From: Myxococcota bacterium
GTDB lineage: Bacteria; Myxococcota_A; UBA9042
Assembly (NCBI GenBank): GCA_964201005.1
Contig: CAXNCS010000002.1
Coordinates: 78,773 to 142,772, forward strand
Direction: 5' to 3'
DNA: 64,000 bases
Shown here piece after piece: positions 16,000-58,238 of this stretch. Position 1 is the first letter of the stretch. Each line of letters opens with the position of its first letter. The notes beneath the pieces were generated by a model, which was not told the origin of the DNA, did not search any database, and saw nothing but the letters and a program-made list of their open reading frames with translations. A program made the position numbers and the translations under genes.

Positions 16000-16026
16000 T
16001 CTTTACTGCTTTATTCCTGGAGACTC

Positions 16027-27579: not shown

Positions 27580-27587
27580 GGTCGCCC

Positions 27588-38896: not shown

Positions 38897-41800
38897 ATGC
38901 TTCACAACCGCTTGACCTCGACGCAGCTGCCCGGGGGGCACAGGTCTCCGCCCATCGCGGGCATTGCGCTGCGCCGACACCGCGCGCTGGGGCTCGCGCT
39001 GACCAGTTTGGTAGCGACCATGATCAGCGGCTGCGAGCTCTTGGGGATCGGCGACGAGCCGCCCAAGAAAGACACAGCGGTCGTCGATCCCTGTGATCTG
39101 GAACCGTATCTGGAGGGCTGTCCGTGCTTTGACGACCCGGCCCAGGATTTTTGCCCCGACCCGTGCTCGCTGGAACCCCCGGCGGCGCAGTGTGTCGATG
39201 GTGCGGGCGGCGATGCGCTGCAAGATGGCGCCGATACAGCGGATACTGCCGCGGATGCCAAGCCCGACACCAAGCCGGATGTGAAGCCCGATACCAAGGA
39301 TGGCGGCGGCCAAGATGGAGACCTGGGCCCAGAGGTGTCGATCGACGCTGAGGAAACCGCGGATGCAGACGACGCTGCGGACCCGGATCAGGCCGACGGC
39401 GAGGTAGAAGAAGACGCCCAGGTGGTCGACGTGCCGGCCGACCTCGGCGACGGCGGCGGTGGCGCGGACAGTTTTGACGCCAGTGTCGATCTGGGCCCCA
39501 CGCCGCTGCCCGACACGTGGATCCTCAGCGATGGCGCGGTGATCGCCGTGCCTCCAGAGGCGCAGTGGGACACCTGGCAGGGCGACGGCGGCGACACCGG
39601 CAAGAACGGCGGCGCGCTCTACTTGCCCGACGGCCTGGTGATCCCGGTGGCCGGCCCAGGCGACGGCTGCCAAAGCGACGGCGAATGCGTGGGACCGCCC
39701 AAGAACTGCCAGGCCTTGGTGTGCCTAGCCGCCAAAGCTGGAGGAGCAAAAACCTGCCAGTACGCACCCTTGCAGGAGGGCCTGGCCTGCAGCGACGGCA
39801 ATGCCTGCACCGACGGCGACAGCTGCCAGGCCGGCGAGTGCAAGGGCTGGGCCAAGATCTGCGCCGACAAGGACTCCAACCTCTGCACCATCAGCAGCTG
39901 CGATCCCAGCAAGGGCTGCGTGGTGACCAACGCGGCCAACGACACGCCGTGCAACGACGGCAACAGCTGCACCGACGCAGACAGCTGCTTTTACGGCAAG
40001 TGCAAGCCGGGATCGGTCAACAAGTGCGAGTGCACCAAGACCTCTGACTGCCTGGCTTTTGACGACGGCAACCTGTGCAACGGCGAGGTCAAGTGCATCG
40101 CCGGCACCTGCATGACCGACAGCAACAGCGTGCAATGGTTTGACAAAGTCGCCAACCTGCTCTGCGATCCCAGCGGCGACAAGCCGTGCGTGACCAACCT
40201 CTGCAACCCCAAGAACGGCCAGTGCCAAATGACGCCCAGCCCCGCGGCGAGCGCCTGCAGCGACGGCGACGCCTGCACCCTGGGCGACGGCTGCCAGGGC
40301 GGCCAGTGCCTCCCCAGCGGCGGCCCGCGCAGTTGCGATGACAAAAATCTATGCACGACAGACAGTTGCGACTCCAAGAAGGGCTGCCTGCACAAGCCCG
40401 CGACCTACCTGTGCGACGACGGCGATCCCTGCACCAGCGGCGATTTGTGCAGCGGCGGACAGTGCAAAGGCGAGCCGCAAAGCAGCTGCAGCTGCGCGAA
40501 CGATGGCGACTGCGCCGGCAAGAACGATGCCAACTTGTGCAACGGCCAGCTCAAATGCGTCCAGGGCAGCTGCCGAATTGACCCGGCCACCGTGGTGACC
40601 TGCGCCGACGGCGGAGCGTGCGCCAGCTCAAGCTGCGACACTGCCACAGGAAAGTGCAGTACAACCCATGTTCAAGCGGGCCTACCGTGCCAGGATGGCA
40701 GCGCGTGCACCCAGGCCGACCAGTGCGACGGCCAGGGCGCGTGCAAGGGCAAGATCGCCACGGTGTGTGACGACGGCAACCCGTGCACGGCTGACGCCTG
40801 TTCCGCGGTCAACGGCTGCGTCAGCGCGATCACCAGTGGCGCTTGCGACGACGGCGACGCCTGCAGCGCTGCAGATGTCTGCGCGAACGGCCAGTGCCAG
40901 CCCGGGGCCAATGTGTGCGCGTGCAGCAAGGACGACGACTGCGCCAAGGTGGGCGGGCTCGACAAGTGCAAGGGCCTGTGGACCTGCGACACGGCCAACG
41001 GCAGCTGCGAGTACGATCCCTCCAAGGCAGTCAAGTGCAGCGGCGACGGAAAAAATCCTTGCACGATAACGGCTTGCCAGCCAAGCACCGGCCAGTGCGC
41101 CAGCAGCAGCTTGGCCAAAGATACCCCCTGCGACGACGGCTTGTACTGCACGGTCTTGGACCGCTGCGGCCCCGGCGGTTGCTCAGGCGACGCCAATCCC
41201 TGCAGCGACGGCTTGGCCTGCACGGCGGACAGCTGCAAAGAGGACGCGCCGACCACCGCCGAAGCGTGCACCCACGACGCCGCCGTCTTGGAGAAACTGC
41301 CCTGCAGCGACGGTTCGCTCTGCACCAGCGGCGACGCGTGTGTCAGCGGCTATTGTGTCGGCACACCGGGGAGTTGCGATGACAAGAACCCGTGCACCGT
41401 GGACGCCTGCGACATGCTGCTCGGCTGCACCTACTTGGCGGCGGAGAAGGCCACCGCGTGCAGCGACGGCAACGCGTGCACCGGCGACCCCGCCAAAGGC
41501 TCGACTTTTGTTCAGGACGGCTGTGACGGCTTTGGCAAGTGCGCCGCCGGCGAGGCCAAAGTGTGCGGCTCGGACAATCCGTGCGTAGAAATTCCGTGCA
41601 ATCCCACGGCTGTAGACGTTCAGCCGGGCACGCCCTTGGGCTGCGAGCAAAAGAAGCTGCTGGACGGCAAGAGCTGCGACGACGGCAACGCCTGTACCAA
41701 CAATGACTTGTGCCAGGTCGGCCTGTGTGCACCGGGCACGGAGACCTCCTGCGACGACGGCAACAGCTGCACCACCGACGGCTGCGAGGCCAAGAGCGGC

Positions 41801-44302
41801 TGCAGCCACGCGAATTCGACGGCGCCGTGCAGCGATCAGGACCCCTGCACGGACAAGGATGCGTGCAACGGCGGCGCCTGCAAAGGCGTTCCTGCCACCT
41901 GCGACGACGAAAACGTCTGCACGGCGGATAGTTGCGATCCCAAGGCCGGCCTGGTGGATGGCTGCGTCCACAAGGCGGCCCAGGGCGATTGTGGCAACTT
42001 TGCCGCCTGTTCCAGCGCCGACGTGCCGCAGTGCGCCTTTAAGGCCGGCCACTTGGTCATCAGCGAAGTCTATGTAGGCGTGCCCGGGGACCCGAGCGAT
42101 GACTGGGTAGAGATCCACAATCCGACCAATCAGTTCGCCAAGCTCGATGAGCTGCAGCTGGAGGCGAGGCCGGTCGACGCGGAGGTCAAAGCGGCGTGGA
42201 AGGTGTTGGCCAAAGGCAAGTCCGGGGTGCTGCTGGCGCCCAAGGGCTATGCGCTGTTTGCGGCGAGCGCGGTGCTCCAAGGCGGCGTGGTGGCGGACAC
42301 GGTGGCGGCCGAGCTGAACCTGGCCCTGCCGCTGAGCAATCCGCCCGGAACCGCCGACTGCTTTGTCGACAGCCTGCGCCACCTGCAGCTGCGCCTGCGC
42401 GATCCGCTCCACCAGCTGGAGCACGACCGCCTCGCCTGGGATGACGGCCAAGCCCAGAGCCTGCCTAAGGAATTGCAGCCGGTGGACGCAAGTGCCGAGC
42501 TGTGGCCGGCGTTTACCTCCATTGAGCGCAAAGCCAGCGGATCGTCCGACGTCAACTCCATGTACCCCCACAAAGCCGAGTGGTTGGCCGGCAATGCCGA
42601 GGACAGCGGCGTGGACAGCGACGACTTCTTGGTGCGGTGGTGGCCGGAGCCGCAGTCGCAAGCCAGTGGCAAGTTTGAGCCAGCGTGTGGCGGACTTTGC
42701 CCCTTGACCAAGATCTGCAACTTTAAGGTTGGTGCCGATACCTGCGTAGACGATGGCGAATGCAAGTCTTTTGGCGCCAGCGCGGCGGCAGCGTGTGGCC
42801 CGGGCAAGGTCTGCGGCGCCGGCCTGTCTCAATGCCTGGCCGATCCCCAGGGAACCGTGGTGATCAGCGAGGTTTTCTTTGGCGACAGCGGCGAGCAATT
42901 TGTCGAGCTGTACAACGCCTCGGCCAAGACCATCGGCGTGGGTGGCTGGAAGCTGCAGCGAAAAAACCCAGAGAATGAGCAGTACTTGCCGTGGATCAAC
43001 ACCTTGGCGACCCTGCCCGCAGGTACGGTGCTGCCGGCCAAGCGCTATTTGCTCATCGGCACGCAGCAGTGGGCCCGCACCCACGGCCAGACCGACGTGG
43101 TCGTGCCGGTCGCGATGGTGGATCAGGGCGGCGGCGCGCTGCGGCTGTGGGATCCGGCGAGCGACGCAGAGGTCGACCTGCTAGGTTGGGGCAACGCCAA
43201 GGCTTTTTCCAACGCCTCGACCGGCGGCATCTACAAAGCGGCCGCGGCGCCCAAGCTGGGGCAATCGCTGGAGCGCAAGGCCAAGTCGGCCTCGACCAGC
43301 GGCAGCATGAGCCCCGGGGGCGGCGACGATCTGCAGGGCAATGGCGCCGATACCTCCAATGACGGTGCGGACTTTGTGATCAACGACCCGTCGCCCCAGA
43401 CCTTTGGCGCAGCGGTGTTTGAGCCGGCTTGCGGCGGCAGTTGCGCGGCGGGCCTGGTGTGCAACTACCTGATTGGCGGGGGTCAGGCCTGTGTCGACCC
43501 GCTGTGCGGCGTGCCTTGCGACCTGGGGCTGGGCTGCAACCCGGTCAGCGGCGTGTGCGATCTGCGGCTGCTGGTGGCAGAGGTGGCCACGGACGGCCTG
43601 CAGGCCAAGGACCAGAACGGCGTGGCGATGTCGCCGGCCAACAACGAGTATGTGGTGCTGTATAATCCGTCGCCTAGCTCGATCATGCTGAGCAAAGTCG
43701 AGACGATCGGCGGCATCAAGACCACCACAGACGCGCTGATCTTGCAGGCCCAAGCCCTGGCGAGCACGAGCTGGGGCAAGCTGACCGACAACGATCTCAA
43801 GAAATTGCCTCTGAGCGGCAGTGTCGCCCCCTATTCCTACTACCTGGTGGCCCCTCCGTCCCACGATGCCTCGTTGCCCCTGCCCGACTACGTCAGCGCG
43901 ACTCCATTTGGCCTGGACGGCAACGTCGGCGCCGTGCGCATTGCCCGCCTCAACGGCACCTACCCCTGGGGCAGCGGCGAGCTGGACCGCGTGGCGTGGG
44001 GTGCGGCCAAGGCCAAAGACGGCGAAGGGAAAACCGCTGTAGAACCGCAGGTCTCCAAGACATGCGCTACGGGACAGGGCGGCGCAATCCGGCGTTTGGC
44101 CCAGGTTGGCAGCGCAGTACAGATCGCCGACCCGTTTAGCGGCGCCTTCTATGCGGGCGCAGGGCGCGACACCAACGACAATGGCGCCGACTGGGTGCGG
44201 GTGCCTCAGCGCCGGCCTCGTTCGCAAAAGTGCAGCCAGCCTGAGGATATTGGCGCCGGCAAGCCGTTCTGCGCGGGCTACCCCTTGGCGCAGCGGCCTT
44301 GA
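38897..44302 (+). CDS. Giant (1801-aa) lipoprotein: acidic tether, mixed Cys-rich modules, three lamin-tail (LTD) domains
   Basis: The lipobox is MISGC. A D/P/K-rich tether is followed by CxDGNxCT repeats interleaved with three ~40-aa CxC...DC...LCNG..KC modules. Three LTD-like modules sit at about 42050-42650, 42850-43400 and 43565-44215 (e.g. VVISEVFFGDSGEQFVELYNASAKTIGVGGWKL). They are separated by FEPACGG Cys linkers. Confidence 0.85.
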   Translation: MLHNRLTSTQLPGGHRSPPIAGIALRRHRALGLALTSLVATMISGCELLGIGDEPPKKDTAVVDPCDLEPYLEGCPCFDDPAQDFCPDPCSLEPPAAQCVDGAGGDALQDGADTADTAADAKPDTKPDVKPDTKDGGGQDGDLGPEVSIDAEETADADDAADPDQADGEVEEDAQVVDVPADLGDGGGGADSFDASVDLGPTPLPDTWILSDGAVIAVPPEAQWDTWQGDGGDTGKNGGALYLPDGLVIPVAGPGDGCQSDGECVGPPKNCQALVCLAAKAGGAKTCQYAPLQEGLACSDGNACTDGDSCQAGECKGWAKICADKDSNLCTISSCDPSKGCVVTNAANDTPCNDGNSCTDADSCFYGKCKPGSVNKCECTKTSDCLAFDDGNLCNGEVKCIAGTCMTDSNSVQWFDKVANLLCDPSGDKPCVTNLCNPKNGQCQMTPSPAASACSDGDACTLGDGCQGGQCLPSGGPRSCDDKNLCTTDSCDSKKGCLHKPATYLCDDGDPCTSGDLCSGGQCKGEPQSSCSCANDGDCAGKNDANLCNGQLKCVQGSCRIDPATVVTCADGGACASSSCDTATGKCSTTHVQAGLPCQDGSACTQADQCDGQGACKGKIATVCDDGNPCTADACSAVNGCVSAITSGACDDGDACSAADVCANGQCQPGANVCACSKDDDCAKVGGLDKCKGLWTCDTANGSCEYDPSKAVKCSGDGKNPCTITACQPSTGQCASSSLAKDTPCDDGLYCTVLDRCGPGGCSGDANPCSDGLACTADSCKEDAPTTAEACTHDAAVLEKLPCSDGSLCTSGDACVSGYCVGTPGSCDDKNPCTVDACDMLLGCTYLAAEKATACSDGNACTGDPAKGSTFVQDGCDGFGKCAAGEAKVCGSDNPCVEIPCNPTAVDVQPGTPLGCEQKKLLDGKSCDDGNACTNNDLCQVGLCAPGTETSCDDGNSCTTDGCEAKSGCSHANSTAPCSDQDPCTDKDACNGGACKGVPATCDDENVCTADSCDPKAGLVDGCVHKAAQGDCGNFAACSSADVPQCAFKAGHLVISEVYVGVPGDPSDDWVEIHNPTNQFAKLDELQLEARPVDAEVKAAWKVLAKGKSGVLLAPKGYALFAASAVLQGGVVADTVAAELNLALPLSNPPGTADCFVDSLRHLQLRLRDPLHQLEHDRLAWDDGQAQSLPKELQPVDASAELWPAFTSIERKASGSSDVNSMYPHKAEWLAGNAEDSGVDSDDFLVRWWPEPQSQASGKFEPACGGLCPLTKICNFKVGADTCVDDGECKSFGASAAAACGPGKVCGAGLSQCLADPQGTVVISEVFFGDSGEQFVELYNASAKTIGVGGWKLQRKNPENEQYLPWINTLATLPAGTVLPAKRYLLIGTQQWARTHGQTDVVVPVAMVDQGGGALRLWDPASDAEVDLLGWGNAKAFSNASTGGIYKAAAAPKLGQSLERKAKSASTSGSMSPGGGDDLQGNGADTSNDGADFVINDPSPQTFGAAVFEPACGGSCAAGLVCNYLIGGGQACVDPLCGVPCDLGLGCNPVSGVCDLRLLVAEVATDGLQAKDQNGVAMSPANNEYVVLYNPSPSSIMLSKVETIGGIKTTTDALILQAQALASTSWGKLTDNDLKKLPLSGSVAPYSYYLVAPPSHDASLPLPDYVSATPFGLDGNVGAVRIARLNGTYPWGSGELDRVAWGAAKAKDGEGKTAVEPQVSKTCATGQGGAIRRLAQVGSAVQIADPFSGAFYAGAGRDTNDNGADWVRVPQRRPRSQKCSQPEDIGAGKPFCAGYPLAQRP

Positions 44303-44416
44303 TCTGCGGGTCTGGCGAACGGCGTTGAAGCGGAGGCGGATGCCCGCTACTCTGGATAGGCGGCGCGTTGCGCGGGGAGCGGCGCGTTGGGTTTTTGGTC
44401 GATTGGGGGAGTCATC

Positions 44417-47400
44417 ATGGATTTCAAGGGTAAAGCCCAGGGCGCAAGCCGGACTCGCTGGGCGACAGCTGCCAGGGCCATCGGCCTCGCAGCGGCGCTG
44501 ACACTGCTGGGACTCGCAGGCGCCTGCTCCACCCCTTCTGGCGGCGGCGGCGGCGGCTACTGGGATCCCGATGCGGTCTGGGACAGTTACGTCGGCGACC
44601 TTGCCCCAAGCGATCTGACGAGCAGCGATCAGCTGTCGGCCGACCAGCTGGCCAGCGACGGCACACTGGCCGACGGCACCTCTGGCAGCGACACGGCCGC
44701 GGGGGACACCGCCAGTGTCGACAGCGGCTGCAGCAAGCCGGCCGATTGCGACGACGGCGAGCCCTGTACCACCGACAATTGCAGCGCAGGCAAGTGCAGC
44801 CACAGCGCCGTGGCCGGCTGCGTCAAGTCGGCGACCCCCTGCGACAGCAAAAACCCATGCAGCAGTGGTGTTTGCGACAGCCAGTCCCGCAGCTGCGTGG
44901 CGTGCCTCCAGGGCAGCGACTGCGGCGGCGGCAAGACCTGCGTGGCCAAGCAGTGCGTGGCGGCGCCGCCGTGCAAGTCCGACGTGGAGTGCAAGGCCAG
45001 CAAGCAGGTGTGCGACAAGGGCCTTGGGGCGTGCGTAGACTGCACCGTGCCGGGCGACTGCGGCGGCGGCTTTGCCTGCGTGCAAAACAAGTGCTTTGCC
45101 GCCAAATCCTGTGGCAGCAGCAAGGATTGCGACAAGGTGTGCGACCTGGAGCTGGGCTACTGTGTCGAATGCCTGAGCGCCGACGACTGCCCCATCGGCC
45201 AGATGTGCAACGCCTCGAGACAATGCAAACCGGTAGTGTGCAGCAACAACAGCTGCGGCGCCGGGCAGAGCTTCTTTGTCTGTGCACCAGGCGGGGCGGG
45301 CTATCAGGCGGGGGTGAATTGCGAGGACAGCAACCCATGCACGGACAGCAGCTGCTCGCCAGAGAAGGGCTGCGTCACCAAATACAACGTCAAGACCTGC
45401 AGCGACGGCGACGCGTGCACGACGGGCGATGCCTGCGGCGCGGGGCTGTGCAGCGGTAGCTCGATCAACTGCAACGACAATAATCCGTGCACCAGCGACA
45501 CCTGTAGCGCCAAAAGCGGCTGCGTCTACAGCGCGCTCAACGGCAGCTGCGACGACGGCAACCCTTGCACGGAAGGCGATTTTTGTGCGTCCAAAGTGTG
45601 CAAGGGCAGCCCCAAGAACTGCGACGACGGCAATCCGTGCACCGCCGACACCTGCAACGGCCAGATCGGCTGCACCAACACGCCCAACAGCGCGCCGTGC
45701 AACGACAATAACCAGTGCACCCAGAGCGACATGTGCAGCGGCGGCAGCTGTCAGGGCGCGCCGATCAAGTGCGACGACGGCAACCCTTGCACAACCGACA
45801 ACTGCGATGCGTTTAGCGGGTGCGTCTCCAGCAATAACAGCAGCTTGTGCGACGATGGCAATGCTTGCACCGTGGGCGACAGCTGCGCTTTTGGCTTCTG
45901 CAACCCCGGCACGGCCAAAAACTGCAGCGACGGCAACCCGTGCACCAACGACAGCTGCAGCGGCGGCACCTGCAAGTACGCCCCTAACTCCGTGGGGTGC
46001 AATGACAATAACCCCTGCACCACCGGGGATTTCTGCAGCAACAGCTCTTGCCAGGCCGGCACCGGGGCGGCCAACTGCGACGACGGCAACAGCTGCACCG
46101 ATGACAGCTGCGTGGCCAATGTAGGCTGCAAGAATGCCGCGAATACTGCCACTTGCAACGACTCGAATGCGTGTACCAGCGCGGATACCTGCGGCGCTGG
46201 CAGCTGCAAGGGCGGCGCGGCGGTCGTGTGCGATGACAAGGATGGCTGCACCGCCGATACCTGCGCGCCCACCACCGGCTGCAAGGCCACCGCCGACACG
46301 GCCAAGTGCGACGACAAAAATCTATGCACGACAGACAGTTGCTCATCTCCCGACGGCACATGTGGCCATGTCGCACTGGCAGGCTGCTGCACCGCGACCG
46401 CCGATTGCGACGACAAGGACCCTTGCACGGACGACTATTGCGCTGGCAACAGCTGTGTTCACAAGAACAACGGCTCGTGCTGCAAGGTAGACGGCGACTG
46501 CAGTGACGGCAGCTTGTGCACCGGCGATACCTGCGTCGATGGCAAGTGCAAGTTCAGCACTTTGCCGTCGCCCGCCACGCCCACCTATGAAGTCGATTGG
46601 GAGAATCCGGGCGATTACGAGGGCTGGGTGGCCAATCCGGCGGTCTCTGGCTTGGGCTGGAGCCAGGCGAGCGGGCTGGGCGCGTCCAGCGGCGCCGGGG
46701 CCCTCAAGTTTGGCCTGACCGCGGGCGGTTCCTTCGCCGCCATCACCGGCGCGGTGAGCTCACAGGTCTTGGGCCCCAAGTTCAAGGTCCCGCTGGGCGG
46801 CGGCACGGCGATGACCTTTGCCTGGAAGCAGATGTTCACTGGGGTCAGCTTGTCGACCTACCCGCCGATCAAGGTGGAGATCTTGACCGGGACGAAGATC
46901 TGGACCGCCTACACCGGCTACTACACGACCAGCACGGCGTTTACCCCCGTCACCGTTGATCTGAGCCCCTTTGGCGGCCAGGACGTGCAAGTTCGCCTCA
47001 AGGGCACCGTCTACGGCAACACCACCACAAAGGCCGCGGGGACGGGGATCTTGCTGGACGCGCTCAAGGTTCAGTGGAGCTGCACCGGCGCCAAGACCTG
47101 CACCGCGGACAGCAGTTGCGCCAATACCGTGGGCTGTTCTGAAGGCCTCTGCGTCGCCGGCAAGTGTTCCTATAGCTACAAGTGCTGTGCGGCGGCGGCG
47201 GACTGCAACGACGGCATTTCCTGCACCACCGACACCTGCGCCACGGACAAGTGCCAACACACCAAAGCCGCGGGCTGCTGTACGTCAGATGCGGGCTGCA
47301 GCGACGGCTTGACCTGCACCATGGACAGCTGTGGTGCGGATAACAAGTGCAAATTCCTATCCATCGCCGACTGTTGCACCGCGGACAGCCAATGCAACGA

Positions 47401-48088
47401 CGGCAGCACCTGCACCGTCGACAGCTGCAAGGCCGGTAAGTGCGTGTACACGGACACGTGCTGCAAGTCGGACGCCGAGTGCAACGACAACGATGACAAG
47501 TGCACCACCGACAAATGCGTAGCCGGCAAGTGCACTTATGCGTCCACTGGCCAGCCGGGCTGCTGCCTGCCGGAGCTGTACAAGGAGAGCTTTGACGGCA
47601 CGGGCTTGACCGGCTGGACCCTGACCAACAGCGCTGGGGCGGCCAAGGGCTGGCAAGTGTGGAAGACGCCCAGCATCGCCGCCAAAAGCGCGCCCGCGGT
47701 GCTGTATTACGGCGACCCGTTGGTGAAGAACTTTGACTTTGGCGGCGTGGCCAACAGCGGCACGGCGACTTCTGCGACCGTGACAGTGCCCGCGGCCAGC
47801 GCCAAGCCGGTGCTCAAATTCTGGGTCTACAAGGACTCGGAGATGGGCGGCGGCAGCTACGATCGCCTGGACCTGTATGTCGTGAAAGCGGGCGTGCAGA
47901 GCGTGTTGCTGACCGAGGCGTCCTCGACCTATACCGCCCAAGCGTGGAAGGAGGTCTCGGTCGAGCTCGGCGGTTATGCCGGACAAACCCTGCAGATTCG
48001 CTTCTCCTTTGCCACGGGCGACTCGGTCGGCAATAGCGGGCTTGGCGTGCTGATCGACGACGTGCGCCTGACCCAGACTTGCCTGTAA
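44417..48088 (+). CDS. Giant (~1223-aa) Cys-rich lipoprotein/secreted protein with two jelly-roll (MAM / choice-of-anchor-J-like) modules
   Basis: ATG 44417 follows GGGGAG. The signal peptide ends LAGAC and is followed by a G6 run. Short 4-Cys knots, CxDGNxCT repeats and five CC-bracketed ~34-aa modules (about 47170-47570) follow. Two Cys-poor beta-rich modules lie at about 46585-47085 and 47575-48085 (GWTLTNSAGAAKGWQVW...LIDDVRL). Confidence 0.85.
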   Translation: MDFKGKAQGASRTRWATAARAIGLAAALTLLGLAGACSTPSGGGGGGYWDPDAVWDSYVGDLAPSDLTSSDQLSADQLASDGTLADGTSGSDTAAGDTASVDSGCSKPADCDDGEPCTTDNCSAGKCSHSAVAGCVKSATPCDSKNPCSSGVCDSQSRSCVACLQGSDCGGGKTCVAKQCVAAPPCKSDVECKASKQVCDKGLGACVDCTVPGDCGGGFACVQNKCFAAKSCGSSKDCDKVCDLELGYCVECLSADDCPIGQMCNASRQCKPVVCSNNSCGAGQSFFVCAPGGAGYQAGVNCEDSNPCTDSSCSPEKGCVTKYNVKTCSDGDACTTGDACGAGLCSGSSINCNDNNPCTSDTCSAKSGCVYSALNGSCDDGNPCTEGDFCASKVCKGSPKNCDDGNPCTADTCNGQIGCTNTPNSAPCNDNNQCTQSDMCSGGSCQGAPIKCDDGNPCTTDNCDAFSGCVSSNNSSLCDDGNACTVGDSCAFGFCNPGTAKNCSDGNPCTNDSCSGGTCKYAPNSVGCNDNNPCTTGDFCSNSSCQAGTGAANCDDGNSCTDDSCVANVGCKNAANTATCNDSNACTSADTCGAGSCKGGAAVVCDDKDGCTADTCAPTTGCKATADTAKCDDKNLCTTDSCSSPDGTCGHVALAGCCTATADCDDKDPCTDDYCAGNSCVHKNNGSCCKVDGDCSDGSLCTGDTCVDGKCKFSTLPSPATPTYEVDWENPGDYEGWVANPAVSGLGWSQASGLGASSGAGALKFGLTAGGSFAAITGAVSSQVLGPKFKVPLGGGTAMTFAWKQMFTGVSLSTYPPIKVEILTGTKIWTAYTGYYTTSTAFTPVTVDLSPFGGQDVQVRLKGTVYGNTTTKAAGTGILLDALKVQWSCTGAKTCTADSSCANTVGCSEGLCVAGKCSYSYKCCAAAADCNDGISCTTDTCATDKCQHTKAAGCCTSDAGCSDGLTCTMDSCGADNKCKFLSIADCCTADSQCNDGSTCTVDSCKAGKCVYTDTCCKSDAECNDNDDKCTTDKCVAGKCTYASTGQPGCCLPELYKESFDGTGLTGWTLTNSAGAAKGWQVWKTPSIAAKSAPAVLYYGDPLVKNFDFGGVANSGTATSATVTVPAASAKPVLKFWVYKDSEMGGGSYDRLDLYVVKAGVQSVLLTEASSTYTAQAWKEVSVELGGYAGQTLQIRFSFATGDSVGNSGLGVLIDDVRLTQTCL

Positions 48089-48168
48089 GCTCAACTCGCC
48101 ACTTGGCGCTTTTTCACAGTGGCGAAGGCGACAGCAGCGACCGGTGCGGCTAGACTGAGCCGAGCGGC

Positions 48169-49575
48169 GTGCGCCGCGCTGTCGTGACCATGACGAACAA
48201 CCCCTTGCGGTTTCAACGGATCTGCGCAACTCGCCTGCACATCGGGTTCACCGCTGGGGCCCTTGCTCTCTTGGCGAGCGCTGCACCGGCCCAGGCCCAA
48301 GCAGATGGCCCTTGGAGCCCTGCCAAAGCCTGGAGCGAAGCGCAACGCCTGAGTCCACAGCTGCGCGCCGCCGACGCCACCGCAGACGCCGCCAAGGCCC
48401 GCATCGACATCGCCCGCATCCCGCAGATTCCAACCGCGGCGATCGAAGCGACCCACAGCGAATCCACGGCCAACTTTGTCGCGCGTCCCGGCTCGGTGCC
48501 CAAGAGCTTTTCTTCCACCGGATCGACCTTTTCTCTGGAACCCTTTGGATTTTGGCATGCTGGGGCGAGTAGCCGCTGGACCTTTGCCGATTTTGGCCGC
48601 ACCAGCGCATCTGTGAACGCCGCCGACCACGCCGCCCAAGCCGCCGGGGCCGATGCCCGCAGCATCCGCAGGCAGGTGTGGTTGCAGGTGATGAGCGCCT
48701 ACCAGCTTGTGTTGACTGCAGAAGCTGGCGTGGTGACAGCCAAGGAGACCCGCGATCAATCGGCCCAGCGCCGCGAATTGGCCAAGAGCCGGGTCGAAGC
48801 TCGGGTCCGGCCGCCGCTGGATCTGGCGCGGGCGGAGAGCGACCTCGCCTCTGCCGAAGTAGCGGTTTTGCGTGGAGAAGAGCAGGTCAGGGCCGCGAGA
48901 ATTGCCCTGGCTGTGGCCATTGGCCTGACCCAAGCCGTCGCCGGACCGCTGGCGCCGCTGAGCCTGCCGGATGCAGAACTGACGGACGAGCGCCTGCAAT
49001 CCGCCGAGGCCTTGGACAAATGGACCGACAGCGCCGCTGCCGAGAGGCCGGAGATCGTCGGCCTGGCCCAGCGCCATCAGGCCGCCTTGGCAGAGCTGGC
49101 AGTGGTGCAAAAGACCGCCAATCCAAGCCTTTATCTTGGGGCATCTGCCACCTTGGCCGGCACCCAATTGGCGGCGATGGCTTTCAACCTGGGGCTCACG
49201 GCTGGCGTGACTTGGCCGATCTCCGGGATGTGGCTGGCGAGCCCGCAGATCGCCGAAGTGCGCGCGCGGATCCGCGCCTTGGACGGCCAGGAACAGAGCT
49301 TGCGCCTGAGTGTGCGCGGTGAACTGGATGCCGCGCGGACAGCCGTCGCCCAAGCGCGCAAGCGCCGCCCTGCCCTTGCGACCCTGCAGCAATTTGCCAA
49401 TCAGGCCTATGAACAGGCCAAAGTCCGCTACACCGCTGGCGCTTCGACGATGACCGAGGTGATCGACGCCGCTTCAGCGGTCAGCCAAGCGCGCCTGCAG
49501 CTGCTCCAAGCCGACTTGGATGAGGCGCTGGGCGTGGCGCGTTGGTGGGCGGCGATGGGCAGGCTGCCTGAATGA
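48169..49575 (+). CDS. TolC/OEP-family outer-membrane channel protein
   Basis: A signal peptide ending APAQAQ is followed by two-fold repeated helical OEP-like sequence (...RVEARVRPPLDLARAESDLASAEVAVL... / ...YTAGASTMTEVIDAASAVSQARLQLLQA...). The start is GTG 48169 or ATG 48190. Confidence 0.7.
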   Translation: MRRAVVTMTNNPLRFQRICATRLHIGFTAGALALLASAAPAQAQADGPWSPAKAWSEAQRLSPQLRAADATADAAKARIDIARIPQIPTAAIEATHSESTANFVARPGSVPKSFSSTGSTFSLEPFGFWHAGASSRWTFADFGRTSASVNAADHAAQAAGADARSIRRQVWLQVMSAYQLVLTAEAGVVTAKETRDQSAQRRELAKSRVEARVRPPLDLARAESDLASAEVAVLRGEEQVRAARIALAVAIGLTQAVAGPLAPLSLPDAELTDERLQSAEALDKWTDSAAAERPEIVGLAQRHQAALAELAVVQKTANPSLYLGASATLAGTQLAAMAFNLGLTAGVTWPISGMWLASPQIAEVRARIRALDGQEQSLRLSVRGELDAARTAVAQARKRRPALATLQQFANQAYEQAKVRYTAGASTMTEVIDAASAVSQARLQLLQADLDEALGVARWWAAMGRLPE

Positions 49576-49590
49576 TCCGCCAAGCTGAAC

Positions 49591-52191
49591 TCAGAAATCC
49601 GCAGAAAGCTTGAACGATCCGCTGCGCCCTGGCACCACCACTTCTACGGCAAGCACGCGGCCGGCACCCACAATGTACTGGTCCTGCTCGGCAAACTTGG
49701 CCCGCAGCTGCACTTGGCACTGGTGCTCGCAGGCGGCTGGAGCCTTGTCCGTAAAGAGGGCGACGGCAAACCAGCCGGGCAGCACCGCGGCGATCAAGGC
49801 TTCGCTCGACTGAATGTCCACCTGCAGCGGATGCACGCGCGGGGTCTCGTCGTCGCCCGCCACAGGGTCGATGGCGAAGGCCGCAAGCCCCTTGTCCGTC
49901 GGCAGAATCACCAGCTGGGTGCCCTGAAAACTCCAGTGACCCACCAGCCAATCGGCCGAGCGGAGCTTGGGCATCACGCCGCGGATCTTGAGGTCCGGGG
50001 TGGCACCTGCAGGCAACTCATAGCGAATTTCAGCACTTGACTTCTTGGGCACCAGCATTCGCTCGTCGCGCCCGGTGCCGACATCAAAGATCACCGTCAG
50101 GTCGCGCGGGCTGCTGTTGCGCAATTCGACCTTGATGGGCGTGGTCTTGTCCGAGCTGCCGCGTTCGGCGCCGCTGACCCGGCCGCTGATCGCCGCTCCG
50201 TCTTCAGCCCTCTTGCGCAATACTTCATCGATCGCCTGCAGTTGCACGTCCACCAGCCGCGAACCGGGGTGCTGACTCCACACTTTGGCGATCGCCTCCA
50301 GATTGGCCTCGGGCTCCAACGCGCGTTTGTCGAGCGCCATCTCGCGGCGCACCGGTCGCACCAGCCCCAAGCGCGGCACGCTGGCCGCCGTATCGCAGCC
50401 GTAGCGGTACTGCAGCACCAGGCCCACTTTGCTGCGCAACGGCGAGCTCTGCGGTGTGCACGGCCCCTTCCACACGCCGCTCGCGGTACCGCCTGCGTCC
50501 AGCAGCTTGGCGAGGCGCGTCGACCCCACCCGCACGTCCACCAGGGCCGGCTGCTTGGTCGGATTCTTGAGCGTCCAGGCCACTGAAACCTCGCGGGGCA
50601 GCATGTGGCGGGCCATCGTCGCCGAAGCCTCGTCCAGGTCGCGCCTCACCTGCGCAGCATCCACCGCTGCGGCGAATTCCACCTCATCGTCAGACACCTG
50701 CGGCTGATCCGTCGTCAGCCAAGCCTGGGGCCGGGCGCGCGCCGCCTTCTGGAGCCGGGCAAACGCCTTGTCGTTCTCCGCGCCGTCGGGCGCCTGGGCC
50801 AGGTAGTCGAGCCACGCCGCTTCACCGCCGTCCTTGGCGGCACTCTCAAACTTCGCCGGCCAATCGGCCGCGGCCGCCTTGCCTTTGTCCTTCTTGCGCG
50901 CCGCCTCCTGAGCGCGTTCCTCCGCTAGCTGGCGCGCTTCCTCGTCTTTCTTCGCCTCGGCGGCCTTTTTCGCTTCGGCTTCCTTCTTGGCCTCGGCGTC
51001 TTTCTTGGCCTCCGCTTCCTTCTTAGCTTCGGCGTCCTTCTTGGCCTCGGCATCCTTCTTGGCCTCGGCGTCCTTCTTGGCCTCGGCGTCCTTCTTGGCG
51101 TCCGCGTCCTTTTTGGCTTCGGCGTCCTTCTTGGCCTCCGCGTCTTTGTTGGCTTCTGCGGCCTTTTTTGCGTCCACGTCCTTCTTGGCGTCCGCGACTC
51201 GCTTGGCCTCCGCGTCTTTGTTGGCTTCTGCGGCCTTCTTCGCGTCCACGTCCTTCTTGGCGTCCGCGACTCGCTTGGCCTCCGCCTCCTTCTTTGCTTC
51301 CGCCTCCTTCTTGGCCTTGGCCTCTGCGTCCTTCTTGGCCTTGGCGTCGGCTTCTTTCTTGACGTCCGCGTCCTTCTTGGCCGAGATTTTTCCCGTCGCT
51401 TCGGCGAGCTTGCGAGCCTTTTCTTCAGCGGACTTGCGGGCTTTCTCTAGCTCAGCCTCCTTCTTGCGCCGCTCCAAGTCCGCAGCTTCCGCCTGCTTGC
51501 GCGCCTTGGCCGCCTCCACCTCCAGGCGCTTGTGATCGCGCTCGGCTTCTTCGACCTCTTTGCGCACCTTGTCGGCCTCCGCCTCCTTCTTTTTGCGCTC
51601 TTTCTCCTCCGCCTCGGCGGCAGCGCGAGCGGCTTTCTCTTTCTCAGCCGCCGCTGCCCTTTCCGCGCGGTCTTTCTCTGCCGCAGAAGCGCGCTCAGAC
51701 TCGCGGCGGACCCGTTCAGCCTCCGCGGCGCGGGTCTTTTCCGATTTGGCGGCGTTGGCCGCGTCTACAGCGTCATCGGCCCGCGGGGTGCGCACGCACT
51801 TGCCCACCCACTGAAAGTCGCGGCCATCGCCTTCGCCGGGCACGCCTTTGCGGCTGGGGTTGTCGACGCGCTCTTCTCGCACCTCCGCCACCGCATCGCA
51901 GCCGTAGCGCGCCGCCGAGTCGAGCAGCTGCTCTTCTGCCGGGCCCTGCGGCGTGCTTTGGCGGGTGGTCCGCAAGCGCAATTCCCCAAGCACTACAGAG
52001 GGCTGCGGCAAGTCCGCCACCTTGCCCGCCATGGCAATCGCCGCGCTCGAGGGCAGTGCGCCGTAGCGCCCCGTGCCCAGCGCCCGGTCAAATTGCACCG
52101 TCGATCCACAGCCGCTGACCAGGAGGGCCACCAAGCCCGCGTGGGCCCAGGGCAATTGCCAGGAGGAGCGATGGTCTTGGCGGTTCTGCAT
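49591..52191 (-). CDS. 866-aa lipoprotein with a ~290-aa E/K/A/D-rich charged helical spacer
   Basis: The lipobox is LLVSGC. A ~115-aa N-domain is followed by a charged low-complexity region (aa ~146-437, nt ~50881-51756) dominated by (KKDAEA)n. A ~430-aa C-terminal globular region follows. Confidence 0.8.
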   Translation of the reverse strand: MQNRQDHRSSWQLPWAHAGLVALLVSGCGSTVQFDRALGTGRYGALPSSAAIAMAGKVADLPQPSVVLGELRLRTTRQSTPQGPAEEQLLDSAARYGCDAVAEVREERVDNPSRKGVPGEGDGRDFQWVGKCVRTPRADDAVDAANAAKSEKTRAAEAERVRRESERASAAEKDRAERAAAAEKEKAARAAAEAEEKERKKKEAEADKVRKEVEEAERDHKRLEVEAAKARKQAEAADLERRKKEAELEKARKSAEEKARKLAEATGKISAKKDADVKKEADAKAKKDAEAKAKKEAEAKKEAEAKRVADAKKDVDAKKAAEANKDAEAKRVADAKKDVDAKKAAEANKDAEAKKDAEAKKDADAKKDAEAKKDAEAKKDAEAKKDAEAKKEAEAKKDAEAKKEAEAKKAAEAKKDEEARQLAEERAQEAARKKDKGKAAAADWPAKFESAAKDGGEAAWLDYLAQAPDGAENDKAFARLQKAARARPQAWLTTDQPQVSDDEVEFAAAVDAAQVRRDLDEASATMARHMLPREVSVAWTLKNPTKQPALVDVRVGSTRLAKLLDAGGTASGVWKGPCTPQSSPLRSKVGLVLQYRYGCDTAASVPRLGLVRPVRREMALDKRALEPEANLEAIAKVWSQHPGSRLVDVQLQAIDEVLRKRAEDGAAISGRVSGAERGSSDKTTPIKVELRNSSPRDLTVIFDVGTGRDERMLVPKKSSAEIRYELPAGATPDLKIRGVMPKLRSADWLVGHWSFQGTQLVILPTDKGLAAFAIDPVAGDDETPRVHPLQVDIQSSEALIAAVLPGWFAVALFTDKAPAACEHQCQVQLRAKFAEQDQYIVGAGRVLAVEVVVPGRSGSFKLSADF
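50941..51385 (-). repeat. In-frame tandem array of ~18-bp units (GGCCTCGGCGTCCTTCTT, encoding KKDAEA)
   Basis: About two dozen consecutive imperfect units read directly. All are in frame within CDS 49591..52191. Confidence 0.9.
51133..51276 (-). repeat. 72-bp tandem duplication (2 copies, 2 mismatches) inside the charged-repeat region
   Basis: Copy 1 spans 51133-51204 and copy 2 spans 51205-51276. They differ only in GCCTTTTTTGCG versus GCCTTCTTCGCG. Each encodes AKRVADAKKDVDAKKAAEANKDAE. Confidence 0.9.
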
Positions 52192-54669: not shown

Positions 54670-55005
54670 GGGTTTACTGCCTCCGGGACGGGGCGAAATG
54701 CGCAAAGGAGCTCATCAACACGCGGCACAAGCGCTTGAAGTCGGCCGCGCTGGAGCGGCAACGCAACCGCGAACGCCCGGCGATCAGCTTGCATGCGATC
54801 GCCGCTACTGTCACCATTTTCGCCGTTCGAATGGCTACCGCCCCCATCCCTGGGGACAACTTCTTCAGTGTAGCGCATCCTCGGACGGTGTGCGCGCGTC
54901 CTACCTTCCCGAGCGACACGATCGCTCTGCTCTTGGGCGGCGCTGATGCCGCGGCCTCCGAGCCCTCTGAACGTTCCCTGACCTCGTCCGATTGGAGCCT
55001 TGCCC

Positions 55006-55653
55006 ATGTTGACTGAACGCCTGTCCGTACTCTTTGACCAAGTTGGCGCCGAGTGGGTGCTGTGGCTGCTCTTGGGGCTTGCCGTGGTGTCGATCGCCCT
55101 GGCCATCGAGCGGATCTTGTTCCTGTGGCAGAACCAGGTGCCGGTAGCGACCCTGCAGATCGATCTGCTCAAGGCGCTGGACAAAGGCCAAGCTGAGGCT
55201 CTGCAAGTGCTTTCTCGCTACAAAGGCATGGAAGCCGTGGTGGCAGCGGCGGGCGTGCGGGAAATGCACCGCGGCGTCGAGGCCGTCACGGAAGTCATGG
55301 CGGCGACCATGGCCACAGAGAAGAAGCGCTACGAGAAGTATCTGATCTTCCTGAGCTCCTTGGGTGCCAACGCGCCGTTCATCGGTCTGCTGGGCACGGT
55401 GATCGGCATCTTGGGGGCCTTTGCCGCCCTCAAGCAGCAGGTGGGCGCTGGCGGTTCGCGGCAGGCGCTGATCATGGGCTCGATTTCTGAGGCGTTGGTG
55501 GCCACCGCCGTGGGTCTGTTTGTGGCGATTCCCTCTGTGGTTTCCTACAACACCTTCCGCACCCGGGTAAAACGCGCCACCACGGACACGGAAGCGCTCT
55601 CGGCCATCGTTCTGGCGCACCTGCACACCATCGAACACGAGAAAAACAAGTAA
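55006..55653 (+). CDS. MotA/TolQ/ExbB proton-channel protein
   Basis: ATG 55006 sits 8 nt after GGAG. It has three TM segments and the LGANAPFIGLLGTVIGI...SEALVATAVGLFVAIP signature. Confidence 0.88.
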   Translation: MLTERLSVLFDQVGAEWVLWLLLGLAVVSIALAIERILFLWQNQVPVATLQIDLLKALDKGQAEALQVLSRYKGMEAVVAAAGVREMHRGVEAVTEVMAATMATEKKRYEKYLIFLSSLGANAPFIGLLGTVIGILGAFAALKQQVGAGGSRQALIMGSISEALVATAVGLFVAIPSVVSYNTFRTRVKRATTDTEALSAIVLAHLHTIEHEKNK

Positions 55654-55688
55654 AACTAGCCAATTAGCCCCAGAAACGGGAGGCCCGC

Positions 55689-56114
55689 ATGGCCGGCAAA
55701 GTCAGTGACGACGACGACGTCCTCTCAGAGATCAATGTAACGCCGCTGGTAGATATCATGCTGGTGTTGCTGATCATTTTCATGCTCACCAATGAAGAAG
55801 TCAGCGAAAAGATGAAGAAGGCCCAGATCGACATCGACCTGCCCAAGGCGGCGTCGGCCGAGATGAAGCCGAGCAAGCCGCTGTCGATCGTGATCTCCAA
55901 GGACGGCAAGCTGTTTCTCAACGGCACGCCGCTCAGCGAGGCCGAGCTCAGCACGGAGGCCAAGAAGGCCGCGGCGGAGAATCCGGGCGTCGAGGCGATT
56001 CTTTCGGCCGACAAGCGCGTGAGCCACGGTGAGGTCGTGCGGATCATCGATCAGGTGCGCCAGGCCAACGTGGAGAAGGTCGCGATTAACACCAAAGAGC
56101 AAGAGATCGAGTAG
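55689..56114 (+). CDS. ExbD/TolR biopolymer transport protein
   Basis: INVTPLVDIMLVLLIIFM N-terminal TM and ExbD-fold periplasmic domain. A GGGAGG Shine-Dalgarno is present. Confidence 0.88.
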   Translation: MAGKVSDDDDVLSEINVTPLVDIMLVLLIIFMLTNEEVSEKMKKAQIDIDLPKAASAEMKPSKPLSIVISKDGKLFLNGTPLSEAELSTEAKKAAAENPGVEAILSADKRVSHGEVVRIIDQVRQANVEKVAINTKEQEIE

Positions 56115-56123
56115 GTCAACCAC

Positions 56124-56939
56124 GTGGATCGCAACCTCACCATTGGCATTACTGCCTCCTTGCTGATCCACGCCGTGGTCGCCCTTTGGGTGCGCGATAT
56201 GGAGACGCAGCCGCGCATCGTCGAACCACCTGAAAAGAAAGCGGTGCGCACGGTGCAGGAGCAGATCATTCTGCCCAAGCCCAAGCCCAAGCCGCCCGAG
56301 GAGAAGCCCCCAGAGGTCAAGCCGCCTGAGACTGCCCCGACCCCAACGCCGCAGCAGGAGGCCAAGCCGCAGGCCGCGCCCAAGCGCACACCGCAGCCCA
56401 AGAGCGACCAGCCCGCGCCCAAGACGCCGCCGCCGCCGAGCAATGAACCGCCGCCGCTGGTGCTGTCTAAGACCTATGGCGGAGGCGGTGATGACGGCGT
56501 GGCCGTGCAGAGCGGCAAGGAAGATGTGCTTGGCGATCCAGGGATTGAAGCCAATGAGGAGAATGTGCGCCGGCGGCCCCAGCCGGAGGTGACGAGCGAT
56601 CAGGGCGGCCAAGGCAGCGACAGCCAAGGGGATACCCAGCCCAAAGAGCCGCGCAAGATTGAGATTCTCCAGGCGCGCCCGCGGGAGTCCTGCGACAAGT
56701 TCATTCAATGGCCGGACGGCGCCGAGTCGGGCGGGCGGGTGATTGAGGTCACGCTCCAGCTGGAGATCGGCGACGACGGCGACATCCGCAAGGTCAAGAT
56801 TCTGCGCGGCGCGGGCGAACCGTTTGACAGCGAGGCGATGCGCGACATTCGCCGCTGCCCGTTCTCTGCCGGCAGCCGCGACGGCAAGCCCACCAGCAGC
56901 AAGATCGCCTTTGTGGTAGTCTTTAAGCCGCGATCGTAG
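56124..56939 (+). CDS. TonB/TolA-like energy transducer (Pro/Lys-rich spacer + TonB_C-like domain)
   Basis: An N-terminal TM is followed by PKPKPKPPEEKPPEVKPPE... spacer. The C-terminal ~80 aa have a TonB_C pattern (GRVIEVTLQLEIGDDGDIRKVKILRGAGEPFDSEAMRDI...). The start is GTG. Confidence 0.7.
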   Translation: MDRNLTIGITASLLIHAVVALWVRDMETQPRIVEPPEKKAVRTVQEQIILPKPKPKPPEEKPPEVKPPETAPTPTPQQEAKPQAAPKRTPQPKSDQPAPKTPPPPSNEPPPLVLSKTYGGGGDDGVAVQSGKEDVLGDPGIEANEENVRRRPQPEVTSDQGGQGSDSQGDTQPKEPRKIEILQARPRESCDKFIQWPDGAESGGRVIEVTLQLEIGDDGDIRKVKILRGAGEPFDSEAMRDIRRCPFSAGSRDGKPTSSKIAFVVVFKPRS

Positions 56940-56945
56940 GAAGCG

Positions 56946-58238
56946 ATGAGGATGTCTATGCGCAACAACACCTTGGCCCGGACGACTCGGTGGACTCCTG
57001 TCGCGGTCGTGGCCCTGGCGATGGTCCTGGGCGGCTGTGGGGAGGATTTTACCCCTCAGTCTGTCGTCAATAAGATCCGGGTGTTGGGCGTGCGCGCCTC
57101 GCCTCCAGAGCTGCAGTTTGCCGGGGACACCCAGCTGGAGCCGCTCGTGGCCGGCTTTGAAGCTAACGCCAAGCTCTGCTACGCCTGGGCTTACTGCCCC
57201 TTTGCGTGGTCCAAAGACGGCAACTTCAAGTGCATCGATCCGGAGTTGCAGATCGACCTGGGCCAAGACCCTAGCGCCACGGTCAACTTGGGTCACGTGT
57301 TCGCTTCGCTGCAGAACGCCGGAAAAGTCTTTGACAAACTTGGGCTCAACCCGCCCGCCGGCACCAGCACGGCCAATGTCCAGGCCGACCTGAGCTGCAG
57401 CCCCAGCGGCAAAGCGCCCGGCGGCCCCGGCGGCGTGGGCTTCTCCAGCGCCGGAGATCTGCCTGAAAGCTATGTGCTTTTCCAGATCACTGAGGCATCG
57501 GTCTACGGCGGCACCTGCCCGACCACCTCCGCGGCCGCGCTGGCCAAGCCGTGCACCGATCGCGATCGCTGCATTGCCGGCTTCAAGCGCCTAGGCCTTG
57601 CGCCTATGCCCAGCACCTGCGGGGCGTTTGACCCGGTGGCCGAGCCCGGTTGCGCCAAGGAGGCGGCCCTGTGCCCCAACTCGCTGGTCTGCGGCTGCGA
57701 CGGCAAGAACTACAACAACGACTGCGCCCGCGTCGCCGCCAAGGTGGCCAAGGCCTATGACGGCGAGTGCCGCAGCGCCAACCTGTCTCCCAGCGCCCCC
57801 GGAATCGGCTTGCGTTTGCCGGCCATTGACGGCACCGCCGCCGCCAAGGGCATCGATTGGCCCGCGGACGCCACCCCGGTCATCGCGGAAGGGTCGGCGA
57901 TTCAGCTCTGGCCGCGGTTCCTGGCCTCGGACAAGCAGGTGATCGGCCCGTCGACCGATCCGTCCAACCCCAAGCCGGTGGTAGAAGAGCTGGTCTATTC
58001 GTGGTTTACCGACTCCGGGCGCTTTGAGAAGCTCAAGACCGTCGATGAATTCCCAGAGAATACCTTTACCGCCCCGACCTTGGCCTCCAACCAGAGCGAG
58101 GCGCTCGTGCCGCTGTGGCTGGTGGTGCGCGATGGCCGCAACGGCACGGAGTGGACCAAGAGGCAAATGATCGTCAAGAAGGGCGTCAAGATGGCCAAGA
58201 ATCCGCTCTGCGCGCTCGGCGTTTCGGGCTGCCCGTAG
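56946..58238 (+). CDS. 430-aa lipoprotein with an embedded Kazal-type domain
   Basis: The lipobox is MVLGGC. A Kazal-like core CPNSLVCGCDGKNYNNDCARVAAKVAKAYDGEC lies at about nt 57660-57770. I do not recognise the rest. Confidence 0.7.
   Translation: MRMSMRNNTLARTTRWTPVAVVALAMVLGGCGEDFTPQSVVNKIRVLGVRASPPELQFAGDTQLEPLVAGFEANAKLCYAWAYCPFAWSKDGNFKCIDPELQIDLGQDPSATVNLGHVFASLQNAGKVFDKLGLNPPAGTSTANVQADLSCSPSGKAPGGPGGVGFSSAGDLPESYVLFQITEASVYGGTCPTTSAAALAKPCTDRDRCIAGFKRLGLAPMPSTCGAFDPVAEPGCAKEAALCPNSLVCGCDGKNYNNDCARVAAKVAKAYDGECRSANLSPSAPGIGLRLPAIDGTAAAKGIDWPADATPVIAEGSAIQLWPRFLASDKQVIGPSTDPSNPKPVVEELVYSWFTDSGRFEKLKTVDEFPENTFTAPTLASNQSEALVPLWLVVRDGRNGTEWTKRQMIVKKGVKMAKNPLCALGVSGCP

Follow-up and report, generated by a model that had tools for sequence, protein, structure and literature searches.

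Two giant cysteine-rich lipoproteins, a TolC-family channel and a long-helix lipoprotein from the secA-relA interval of a freshwater Myxococcota genome

We analyzed a 64-kb stretch of genomic DNA (hereafter the window) from a freshwater member of the Myxococcota (contig CAXNCS010000002.1 of assembly GCA_964201005.1), in which four closely packed open reading frames (ORFs) encode cell-envelope proteins. This block of ~13 kb (38897-52191), located between secA and relA, consists of genes for two giant cysteine-rich lipoproteins, P1 (38897-44302, forward strand) and P2 (44417-48088, forward), a gene for an outer-membrane channel of the TolC (OEP) family (48169-49575 as called, forward), and a gene for a long-helix lipoprotein, P4 (49591-52191, reverse). 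An initial annotation of this DNA, made without database searches, had proposed that the four genes form a surface island whose products constitute one outward-facing binding apparatus. The gene models underlying that proposal were confirmed in coordinates, orientation and spacing: P1 and P2 are 114 nt apart, the gap between P2 and OEP is 80 nt when counted from a GTG start and 101 nt when counted from an ATG, and the stop codons of the convergent OEP and P4 genes are separated by 15 nt.

The flanks of the block are housekeeping genes. On the 5' side lie a Ser/Thr kinase gene and the SecA gene, which abuts P1 and diverges from it; the 3' side holds genes for RelA/SpoT, ExbB, ExbD, a TonB_C protein, RF-1 and a DUF1385 protein. 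GC content is flat, staying at 0.63-0.68 through the block and matching the flanks. The tRNA scan of the window was empty, the Rfam scan returned zero matches, and no integrase or transposase appeared in the Pfam scans of window ORFs (flanking direct repeats were not searched for). We therefore reject the term 'island' insofar as it implies horizontally acquired or mobile DNA. An ORF-by-ORF Pfam scan across the same 64 kb also detected no ABC, membrane-fusion protein (MFP) or RND gene. The adjacent MFP and ABC, RND or MFS pump that mark a tripartite efflux or type I secretion locus are thus missing among the scanned ORFs, and the TolC-family gene is an orphan, as first described.

Signal peptides and lipoboxes were read by eye from the translations, as pattern matches only. 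The lipobox pattern [LVI..][ASTG][GAS]C occurs in P1 (ISGC46), P2 (LAGAC37, matching as AGAC) and P4 (LVSGC28, matching as VSGC) and is kept in their orthologs, whereas OEP has a Sec-type signal that ends in AQAQA and lacks a lipobox; all four proteins thus bear the export signals attributed to them. Searches of the four proteins against Pfam and NCBIfam gave no match to RTX, autotransporter, type IX secretion, PEP-CTERM or MYXO-CTERM models, also in keeping with the initial annotation.

P1 is an 1801-residue protein for which an identical record exists at NCBI; other sources label it 'hypothetical protein'. Its signal peptide and lipobox (MISGC, with the cysteine at position 46; 38897-39034) are followed by an acidic, low-complexity segment that would serve as a tether (residues 47-250; 39035-39646). 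Between residues 51 and 200 this segment contains 12-18 Asp or Glu per 50 residues, and its cysteines are limited to residues 66-99. The adjoining cysteine-rich repeat region, a presumed stalk (residues 255-1047; 39659-42037), has 5-9 Cys per 50 residues and includes six Dicty_CTDC (PF00526) stretches, which together score 76.6 bits against a Pfam cut-off of 27. The protein has 141 Cys in total (7.8%), and setting aside the lipobox residue leaves an even number, 140.

Toward its C-terminus P1 contains lamin-tail domains (LTD; PF00932), with a score of 81.6 bits that clears the gathering threshold of 34.3. The first (42044-42631) scored 28.1 bits as an excised segment (E 2.7e-6) and the second (residues 1317-1432; 42845-43192) scored 51.8 bits. 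The third (43562-44206) is diverged and carries an insertion; it reaches only E 0.05 in Pfam, aligns colinearly with the second by BLASTP (E 6e-6 over 141 residues), and is identified through this pairwise similarity alone. Three LTDs are nonetheless a fair description of the predicted domain content. Pfam revealed no nuclease or other catalytic domain in P1, and a PDB sequence search with the LTD region yielded no match.

P2 comprises 1223 residues when translated from ATG 44417, which is preceded by a GGGGGAG ribosome-binding site; an alternative TTG at 44387 would yield 1233. It is richer in cysteine than P1, with 135 residues (11.0%), of which an even number (134) remains once the lipobox cysteine is discounted. 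All 135 cysteine columns are invariant among five orthologs of 62-93% identity, and we therefore regard these residues as forming structural disulfides. Its putative stalk (residues 105-712; 44729-46552), delimited by cysteine content and Dicty_CTDC matches, contains seven stretches of that family (88 bits; cut-off 27). Two jelly-roll modules follow. The second (47570-48085) belongs to the choice-of-anchor-J/MAM-like group, matching NCBIfam NF038128 at positions 1065-1227 with 44.2 bits against a cut-off of 30, and Pfam MAM with an E value of 1.1e-5. The first (residues 722-890; 46580-47086) has no Pfam match and is homologous to the second according to an hhalign comparison of ortholog alignments (95.8% probability, E 7.5e-9). 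The C-terminal half of P2 produced no match in a PDB sequence search.

The domain inventory of the initial annotation, three LTDs and two jelly rolls, thus stands. Its 'at least four' kinds of disulfide module also stand, since regular expressions told apart at least five cysteine patterns in P1 and P2, of which only the Dicty_CTDC type has family support; its estimate of roughly a hundred cysteines per protein was right about cysteine richness and too low in number. The C-termini of both proteins lack a hydrophobic, Arg-rich tail and any recognizable secretion signal. A GC-rich hairpin with a T-run in the P1-P2 gap (44361-44389, forward) was picked up by pattern scan, a weak form of evidence, and was rejected as a terminator: its stability is no better than that of shuffled sequences (z 0.42), and its 5' arm and T-run are degraded in the closest relative.

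The OEP gene encodes two tandem PF02321 repeats (E 2.5e-37) in a protein of 468 residues from the called GTG (48169) or 461 from a conserved ATG (48190), in line with the ~450 residues typical of the family. Most members of its 90% identity cluster are 461 residues long and are labeled 'outer membrane protein TolC'. It resembles Escherichia coli TolC and Pseudomonas OprN in having two OEP repeats, ~460 residues and a Sec signal, and differs from known outer-membrane factors in being very divergent and, unlike the NodT/OprM class, in having no lipobox. Scores lie far below the cut-offs of the named subfamilies (56.9 versus 225.15 bits for TIGR01844, type_I_sec_TolC; 52.3 versus 210.05 bits for TIGR01845, NodT). 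Relatives of solved structure found by sequence were OprN (the closest, E 2e-6) and TolC only, and a search of 5.8 billion proteins yielded just about six close relatives (at least 40% identity).

The gap upstream of OEP contains a promoter-like footprint (48128-48156, forward), GCGACA and TAGACT separated by 17 nt. It is invariant in five intergenic sequences, from genomes with ~70% identical OEP, in which neighboring columns vary. The footprint surfaced only through this alignment, a sigma-70 consensus scan having returned nothing useful, and the P2-OEP gap showed no canonical terminator. From conservation of the sequence we infer a sigma-70-type promoter, with -35- and -10-like elements, that would make OEP its own transcription unit. 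In the same five genomes GACCATG, which includes ATG 48190, is invariant within otherwise variable sequence, and GTG 48169 falls inside the conserved stretch from promoter to ATG; if the promoter reading is right, the GTG lies at or before the start of transcription. ATG 48190 is thus the probable true start codon, correcting the deposited GTG.

P4, an 866-residue lipoprotein without a Pfam family, belongs to a small uncharacterized family whose alignment comprises the lipobox, an N-terminal domain of ~105 residues with invariant cysteines, a region rich in Ala, Glu, Lys and Asp that varies in length, and a C-terminal domain of ~420 residues. The globular domain at the N-terminus, which adjoins the lipid anchor (residues 28-135; 51787-52110), was modeled by AlphaFold2 with a pLDDT of 92.8, and its cysteines at positions 98 and 132 (besides that of the lipobox) are invariant in the family. 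The best PDB matches to this model in Foldseek are Francisella FvfA (5evf) and RcsF, with TM scores of 0.39-0.52 and probabilities of 0.87-0.99 at weak E values (6e-3 to 7e-2); for RcsF alone the probability is 0.87-0.91, again at a weak E value of 0.04-0.07, and there is no Pfam RcsF match. The modeled head of P4 may resemble RcsF and FvfA, and it too adjoins a lipid anchor and has invariant cysteines; P4 departs from them in having an additional 420-residue C-terminal domain without a fold match.

The predicted helical spacer (residues ~140-440; 50872-51774), recognized from composition and with TRF, includes an 18-nt unit (AEAKKD) repeated 21 times at 50939-51317. If fully helical, a continuous helix of ~290 residues would span about 40 nm. 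In composition it is similar to domain II of TolA, which spans the periplasm, whereas P4 has a lipobox in place of the transmembrane anchor of TolA and, by Pfam, no TolA or TonB_C C-terminal domain. P4 length differs among assemblies: 866 residues in the window, 836 in an identical contig held at the European Nucleotide Archive (L001, 11423-13933) and 870 in the closest relative (L007, 11423-14035). This difference in repeat copy number among near-identical genomes reflects either a true polymorphism in length or a collapse of the array during assembly, and it explains why an exact look-up of P4 gave nothing.

The C-terminal domain of P4 (residues 441-866; 49594-50871), a helical subdomain with beta-sandwiches, was also modeled with confidence (pLDDT 87.6, pTM 0.80). 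No specific PDB fold matched this model (TM at most 0.15), and Foldseek with the whole model gave generic Ig-like matches only. The domain carries the family motifs VVFDVGTGRDERLLV and LPRLRSxDWLVGxW. Its homologs are rare: an exhaustive HMMER search recovered 30 cluster representatives among 1.84 billion proteins, a word-indexed search only 2 matches, and a metagenome scan with a seven-sequence P4 alignment only 2 loci. Matches of P4 to Pfam Plasmodium_HRP and to NCBIfam MSCRAMM Sdr/Clf models were far under cut-off and were discarded as low-complexity artifacts.

We then compared the locus with its relatives. The closest species-representative genome is a Myxococcota metagenome-assembled genome (MAG) from Lake Mendota (L007; 94% identity), followed by a 'Myxococcales' MAG from Lake Erken (L008; ~70% identity). 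All four genes occur together and in the same order only in L007, where synteny is uninformative because of the 94% identity. Co-localization in related genomes, by which the initial annotation had proposed to judge its four-gene block, was thus largely lacking. In the ~70% clade (L003, L006 and L008) only one part of the block is kept, a P2 homolog followed by OEP. This co-oriented pair, with gaps of 80-170 nt, is present in L003, L006, L007 and L008; identity in the ~70% clade is ~63% for P2 and ~70% for OEP. RelA is 91% identical between the genomes that keep the pair, so neutral synteny is to be expected among such close relatives.

In the ~70% clade the gene convergent on OEP is not P4. 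It encodes a 1217-residue secreted CBM96/Dicty_CTDC protein that is absent from the window, and in L008 it splits OEP from P4: the P4 homolog, and then RelA, lie beyond it. Because the non-repeat parts of this CBM96 protein have no counterpart anywhere in the 64-kb window, the 15-nt OEP/P4 junction marks the place at which the CBM96 gene is lacking. Copies were located in L008 (4153-7806, reverse), L047 (~11499-15098, forward), L003 (5391-7232, reverse) and L006 (5351-7195, reverse). The protein, of ~1200 residues, combines a MopE-like motif with three Dicty_CTDC repeats, and its C-terminal region of ~600 residues is without annotation. It follows the P4 homolog in both L008 and L047, with 58% identity between the two copies. 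The L047 P4 homolog (53% identity) sits between fadAB and the CBM96 gene, and no OEP or P2 homolog occurs within 10 kb of it; the only similarity to P1 or P2 there comes from the cysteine repeats of the CBM96 protein itself. Another P4 homolog (L046; 42%) adjoins an unrelated TetR-OEP-MFP-RND operon whose OEP has no BLASTP match to the window proteins.

Synteny breaks down for the remaining families too. P1 homologs covering the triple-LTD region were found in L049 and L050 (54% and 40% identity) beside IS21 genes or an ABC-F gene, with none of the other three families nearby. At the former locus (L049, 5753-9809) the P1 homolog is followed by a small ORF with a Dicty_CTDC fragment and an IS21-type IstA/IstB pair, a context that hints at a location of such giant genes in DNA undergoing rearrangement. 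Outside the clade, OEP has its closest relative in L004 (P0006, 40% identity); genes for a Wzx-type flippase and a glycosyltransferase flank it, its 12-kb contig contains no P2 homolog, and neither P1 nor P4 has a homolog nearby. In that contig (3132-9778) the gene lies directly upstream of the Polysacc_synt (Wzx-type) flippase and glycosyltransferase genes, with a COLFI-domain protein (E 4e-10) encoded nearby. A further 37 TolC loci, nearly all of them in Myxococcota, share 28-38% identity (mostly 28-34%) and in no case lie near a P1, P2 or P4 homolog; the neighbors in L009, for instance, encode an MFP, a two-component system and two RND pumps. These loci came from a genome scan with the OEP alignment and are paralogs rather than orthologs, so they serve as negative controls only. 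As judged from gene order, the units that persist are P2 with OEP, at shallow depth, and P4 with the CBM96 protein, at greater depth, not the four-gene block.

On balance, we favor the view that the 13-kb stretch is probably no single machine but a variable patch in which cell-envelope genes evolve independently of one another. For P1 and P2 the best reading is that of separate binding proteins, each lipid-anchored and of stalk-and-head design. Each would be exported by Sec, lipidated at its N-terminal cysteine and oxidatively folded in the periplasm. An acidic, flexible tether would lead into some 600-800 residues of Dicty_CTDC-type disulfide-knot repeats acting as a rigid stalk, with beta-sandwich heads at the distal end: the three lamin-tail domains of P1 and the MAM/choice-of-anchor-J jelly-roll pair of P2. 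The most likely ligand of these heads is a polymer or the surface of a partner, be it glycan, extracellular DNA, matrix or prey. The simplest reading of OEP is a stand-alone channel that probably has a promoter of its own and would work with efflux or type I pumps whose genes lie elsewhere; in E. coli, too, the pump genes are not linked to tolC, so a locus without a pump is not an anomaly. P4, with its RcsF/FvfA-like head at the anchor, charged helix and beta-sandwich tail, would probably be a tether that spans or projects from the envelope, and its partner in relatives, to judge by gene order, appears to be the secreted CBM96 protein and not TolC.

P1 and P2 would share the stalk-and-head design proposed for TraA of Myxococcus xanthus, likewise a Myxococcota envelope protein, and are two to three times longer than it. 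The Cys-rich tandem repeats of TraA, which resemble Pfam00526, the Dictyostelium repeat, have been proposed to form a rigid stalk for a lectin-like beta-sandwich head (PMC3325183). TraA carries its PA14 head at the N-terminus and its MYXO-CTERM anchor at the C-terminus, and its partner is the OmpA-like TraB, whereas P1 and P2 are anchored by a lipobox at the opposite, N-terminal end and place their LTD or MAM-like heads C-terminally. Neither has a PA14, TIGR04201 or MYXO-CTERM match in Pfam or NCBIfam, and thus they are not members of the TraA family. The Dicty_CTDC repeat also unites P1 and P2 with extracellular-matrix and prespore proteins of Dictyostelium, from which they differ in being bacterial lipoproteins that join the repeats to LTD and choice-of-anchor-J modules. 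Shewanella ExeM, an extracellular nuclease with an LTD (PMC6085458), is, like P1, a secreted or envelope-associated bacterial LTD protein; P1 has no nuclease domain.

Several points weigh against the favored view of an independently evolving patch. The surface exposure of P1 and P2 is deduced, and disulfide-rich proteins of 120-180 kDa would, in folded form, need some way across the outer membrane. The adjacency of P2 and OEP, kept at the identities given above, could be functional and not a mere product of recent ancestry. Most relatives are short metagenomic contigs in which neighbors past the contig ends are out of sight, as would be a P1 gene upstream of P2 in L003, L006 and L008. The putative OEP promoter is a conservation footprint and not a mapped transcription start. 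We know of no ligand for LTD or choice-of-anchor-J modules, and the role of the LTD has not been elucidated according to the ExeM study (PMC6085458).

Among the alternatives, the one that fares best, if still unlikely, is that P1 and P2 remain on the periplasmic side, anchored in the inner leaflet of the outer membrane, and act as envelope scaffolds or bind periplasmic polymers. The N-terminal lipobox is indeed the only sorting mark in either protein, disulfide-rich folding takes place in the periplasm, and genes with DsbA domains lie nearby. However, judged by their size, rod-like repeats in proteins of 120-180 kDa would far exceed the width of the periplasm. Moreover, extracellular proteins are where LTD, MAM/choice-of-anchor-J and Dicty_CTDC modules typically occur; the NCBIfam description of choice-of-anchor J refers to its surface anchors, and Cys-rich proteins associate with the extracellular matrix (PMC3325183).

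Less probable again is a functional coupling of P2 to the TolC-like channel, with P2 docking on it, capping it or being released with its help, and P1 and P4 as bystanders. The retention of adjacency and orientation in four relatives is what commends this idea, but the high RelA identity in those same genomes leads one to expect as much without selection, the 40% OEP relative has no P2 homolog on its contig, and the intergenic footprint suggests separate promoters. To our knowledge there is also no precedent for TolC acting on Sec-exported lipoproteins. We hold it to be very doubtful, too, that a divergent TolC-family channel is needed to display, release or dock P2; if so, the TolC scaffold would have acquired a new use in surface-lipoprotein biology. 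As a separate, similarly speculative idea, the P4 family could be a new kind of envelope-spanning tether or sensor, with a helix of ~40 nm between an RcsF-like head and a tail of beta-sandwiches.

The single apparatus of the initial annotation, in which the TolC-like channel and P4 would have the role of assembling with P1 and P2, exporting them or anchoring them, now seems highly improbable. Tight packing, a common envelope destination and the shared gene order of L007 speak for it. That genome is too close to be informative, and the proposal is left unsupported because P1, P4 and OEP homologs occur in relatives without the other members, in every more distant case. In addition, the CBM96 gene intervenes between OEP and P4 in the ~70% clade, and OEP has a conserved promoter-like footprint of its own. 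TolC channels receive unfolded substrates from inner-membrane pumps, whereas P1 and P2 are predicted to be Sec-exported and oxidized in the periplasm, with ~135-140 disulfide-forming cysteines, and so do not suit this route. What endures of the proposal is its description of P1 and P2 as lipid-anchored, disulfide-stapled binding proteins. Its remark that no characterized system has this composition is true as well, mainly, it appears, because the four genes are not a system. The notion that the neighboring channel secretes P1 and P2 by the type I route deserves next to no credence and is essentially refuted: apart from the adjacency of a TolC-family gene, everything opposes it, namely the N-terminal lipoprotein signals, the absence of RTX (HemolysinCabind) matches, the lack of an ABC or MFP gene in the 64 kb and C-termini without a recognizable secretion signal.

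P1 and P2 are not exceptional in this genomic neighborhood, because the window also holds other Cys-rich envelope proteins and two DsbA-domain genes. An ORF that runs off the start of the window (2-3631, forward) has 188 Cys in 1209 residues (15.6%) and 19 Dicty_CTDC stretches (E 6.6e-108). A 300-residue OmpA-family protein (21344-22246, reverse) contains 31 Cys (10.3%), with a weak DUF7107 match in its N-terminal half; this union of an OmpA domain with a Cys-rich module recalls the TraB-type partners of Cys-rich receptors. Two adjacent DsbA/thioredoxin-like genes (25270-27579 and 27576-29516, both forward), the first with at least 3-4 DsbA-like copies in 769 residues, could provide dedicated oxidative folding of Cys-rich envelope proteins, and lgt is located upstream of the block (16000-16923). 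Downstream (55000-58238, forward), genes for ExbB, ExbD and a TonB_C protein form a TolQRA-like trio. It is followed, where a TolB-like protein would be expected, by a 430-residue lipoprotein with 17 Cys, which has a sub-threshold Kazal-like motif (E 0.032) and matches no other family; the next ORF, of 164 residues, has no match.

If the favored reading is true, this locus would be of little weight as a system, and it shows that how closely envelope genes are packed in a MAG is no evidence for a machine. Its yield would instead be two large additions to the poorly studied Cys-rich repeat surface proteins of the Myxococcota and one start codon set right. P4 defines a small, well-delimited and confidently modeled lipoprotein family, whose architecture suggests a molecular spacer or sensor. 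Disulfide-stapled envelope proteins appear to be a heavy investment of the lineage, and multi-DsbA genes lie near them. Together, this investment and the P4 family could guide work on how uncultured freshwater Myxococcota make contact with prey or matrix.

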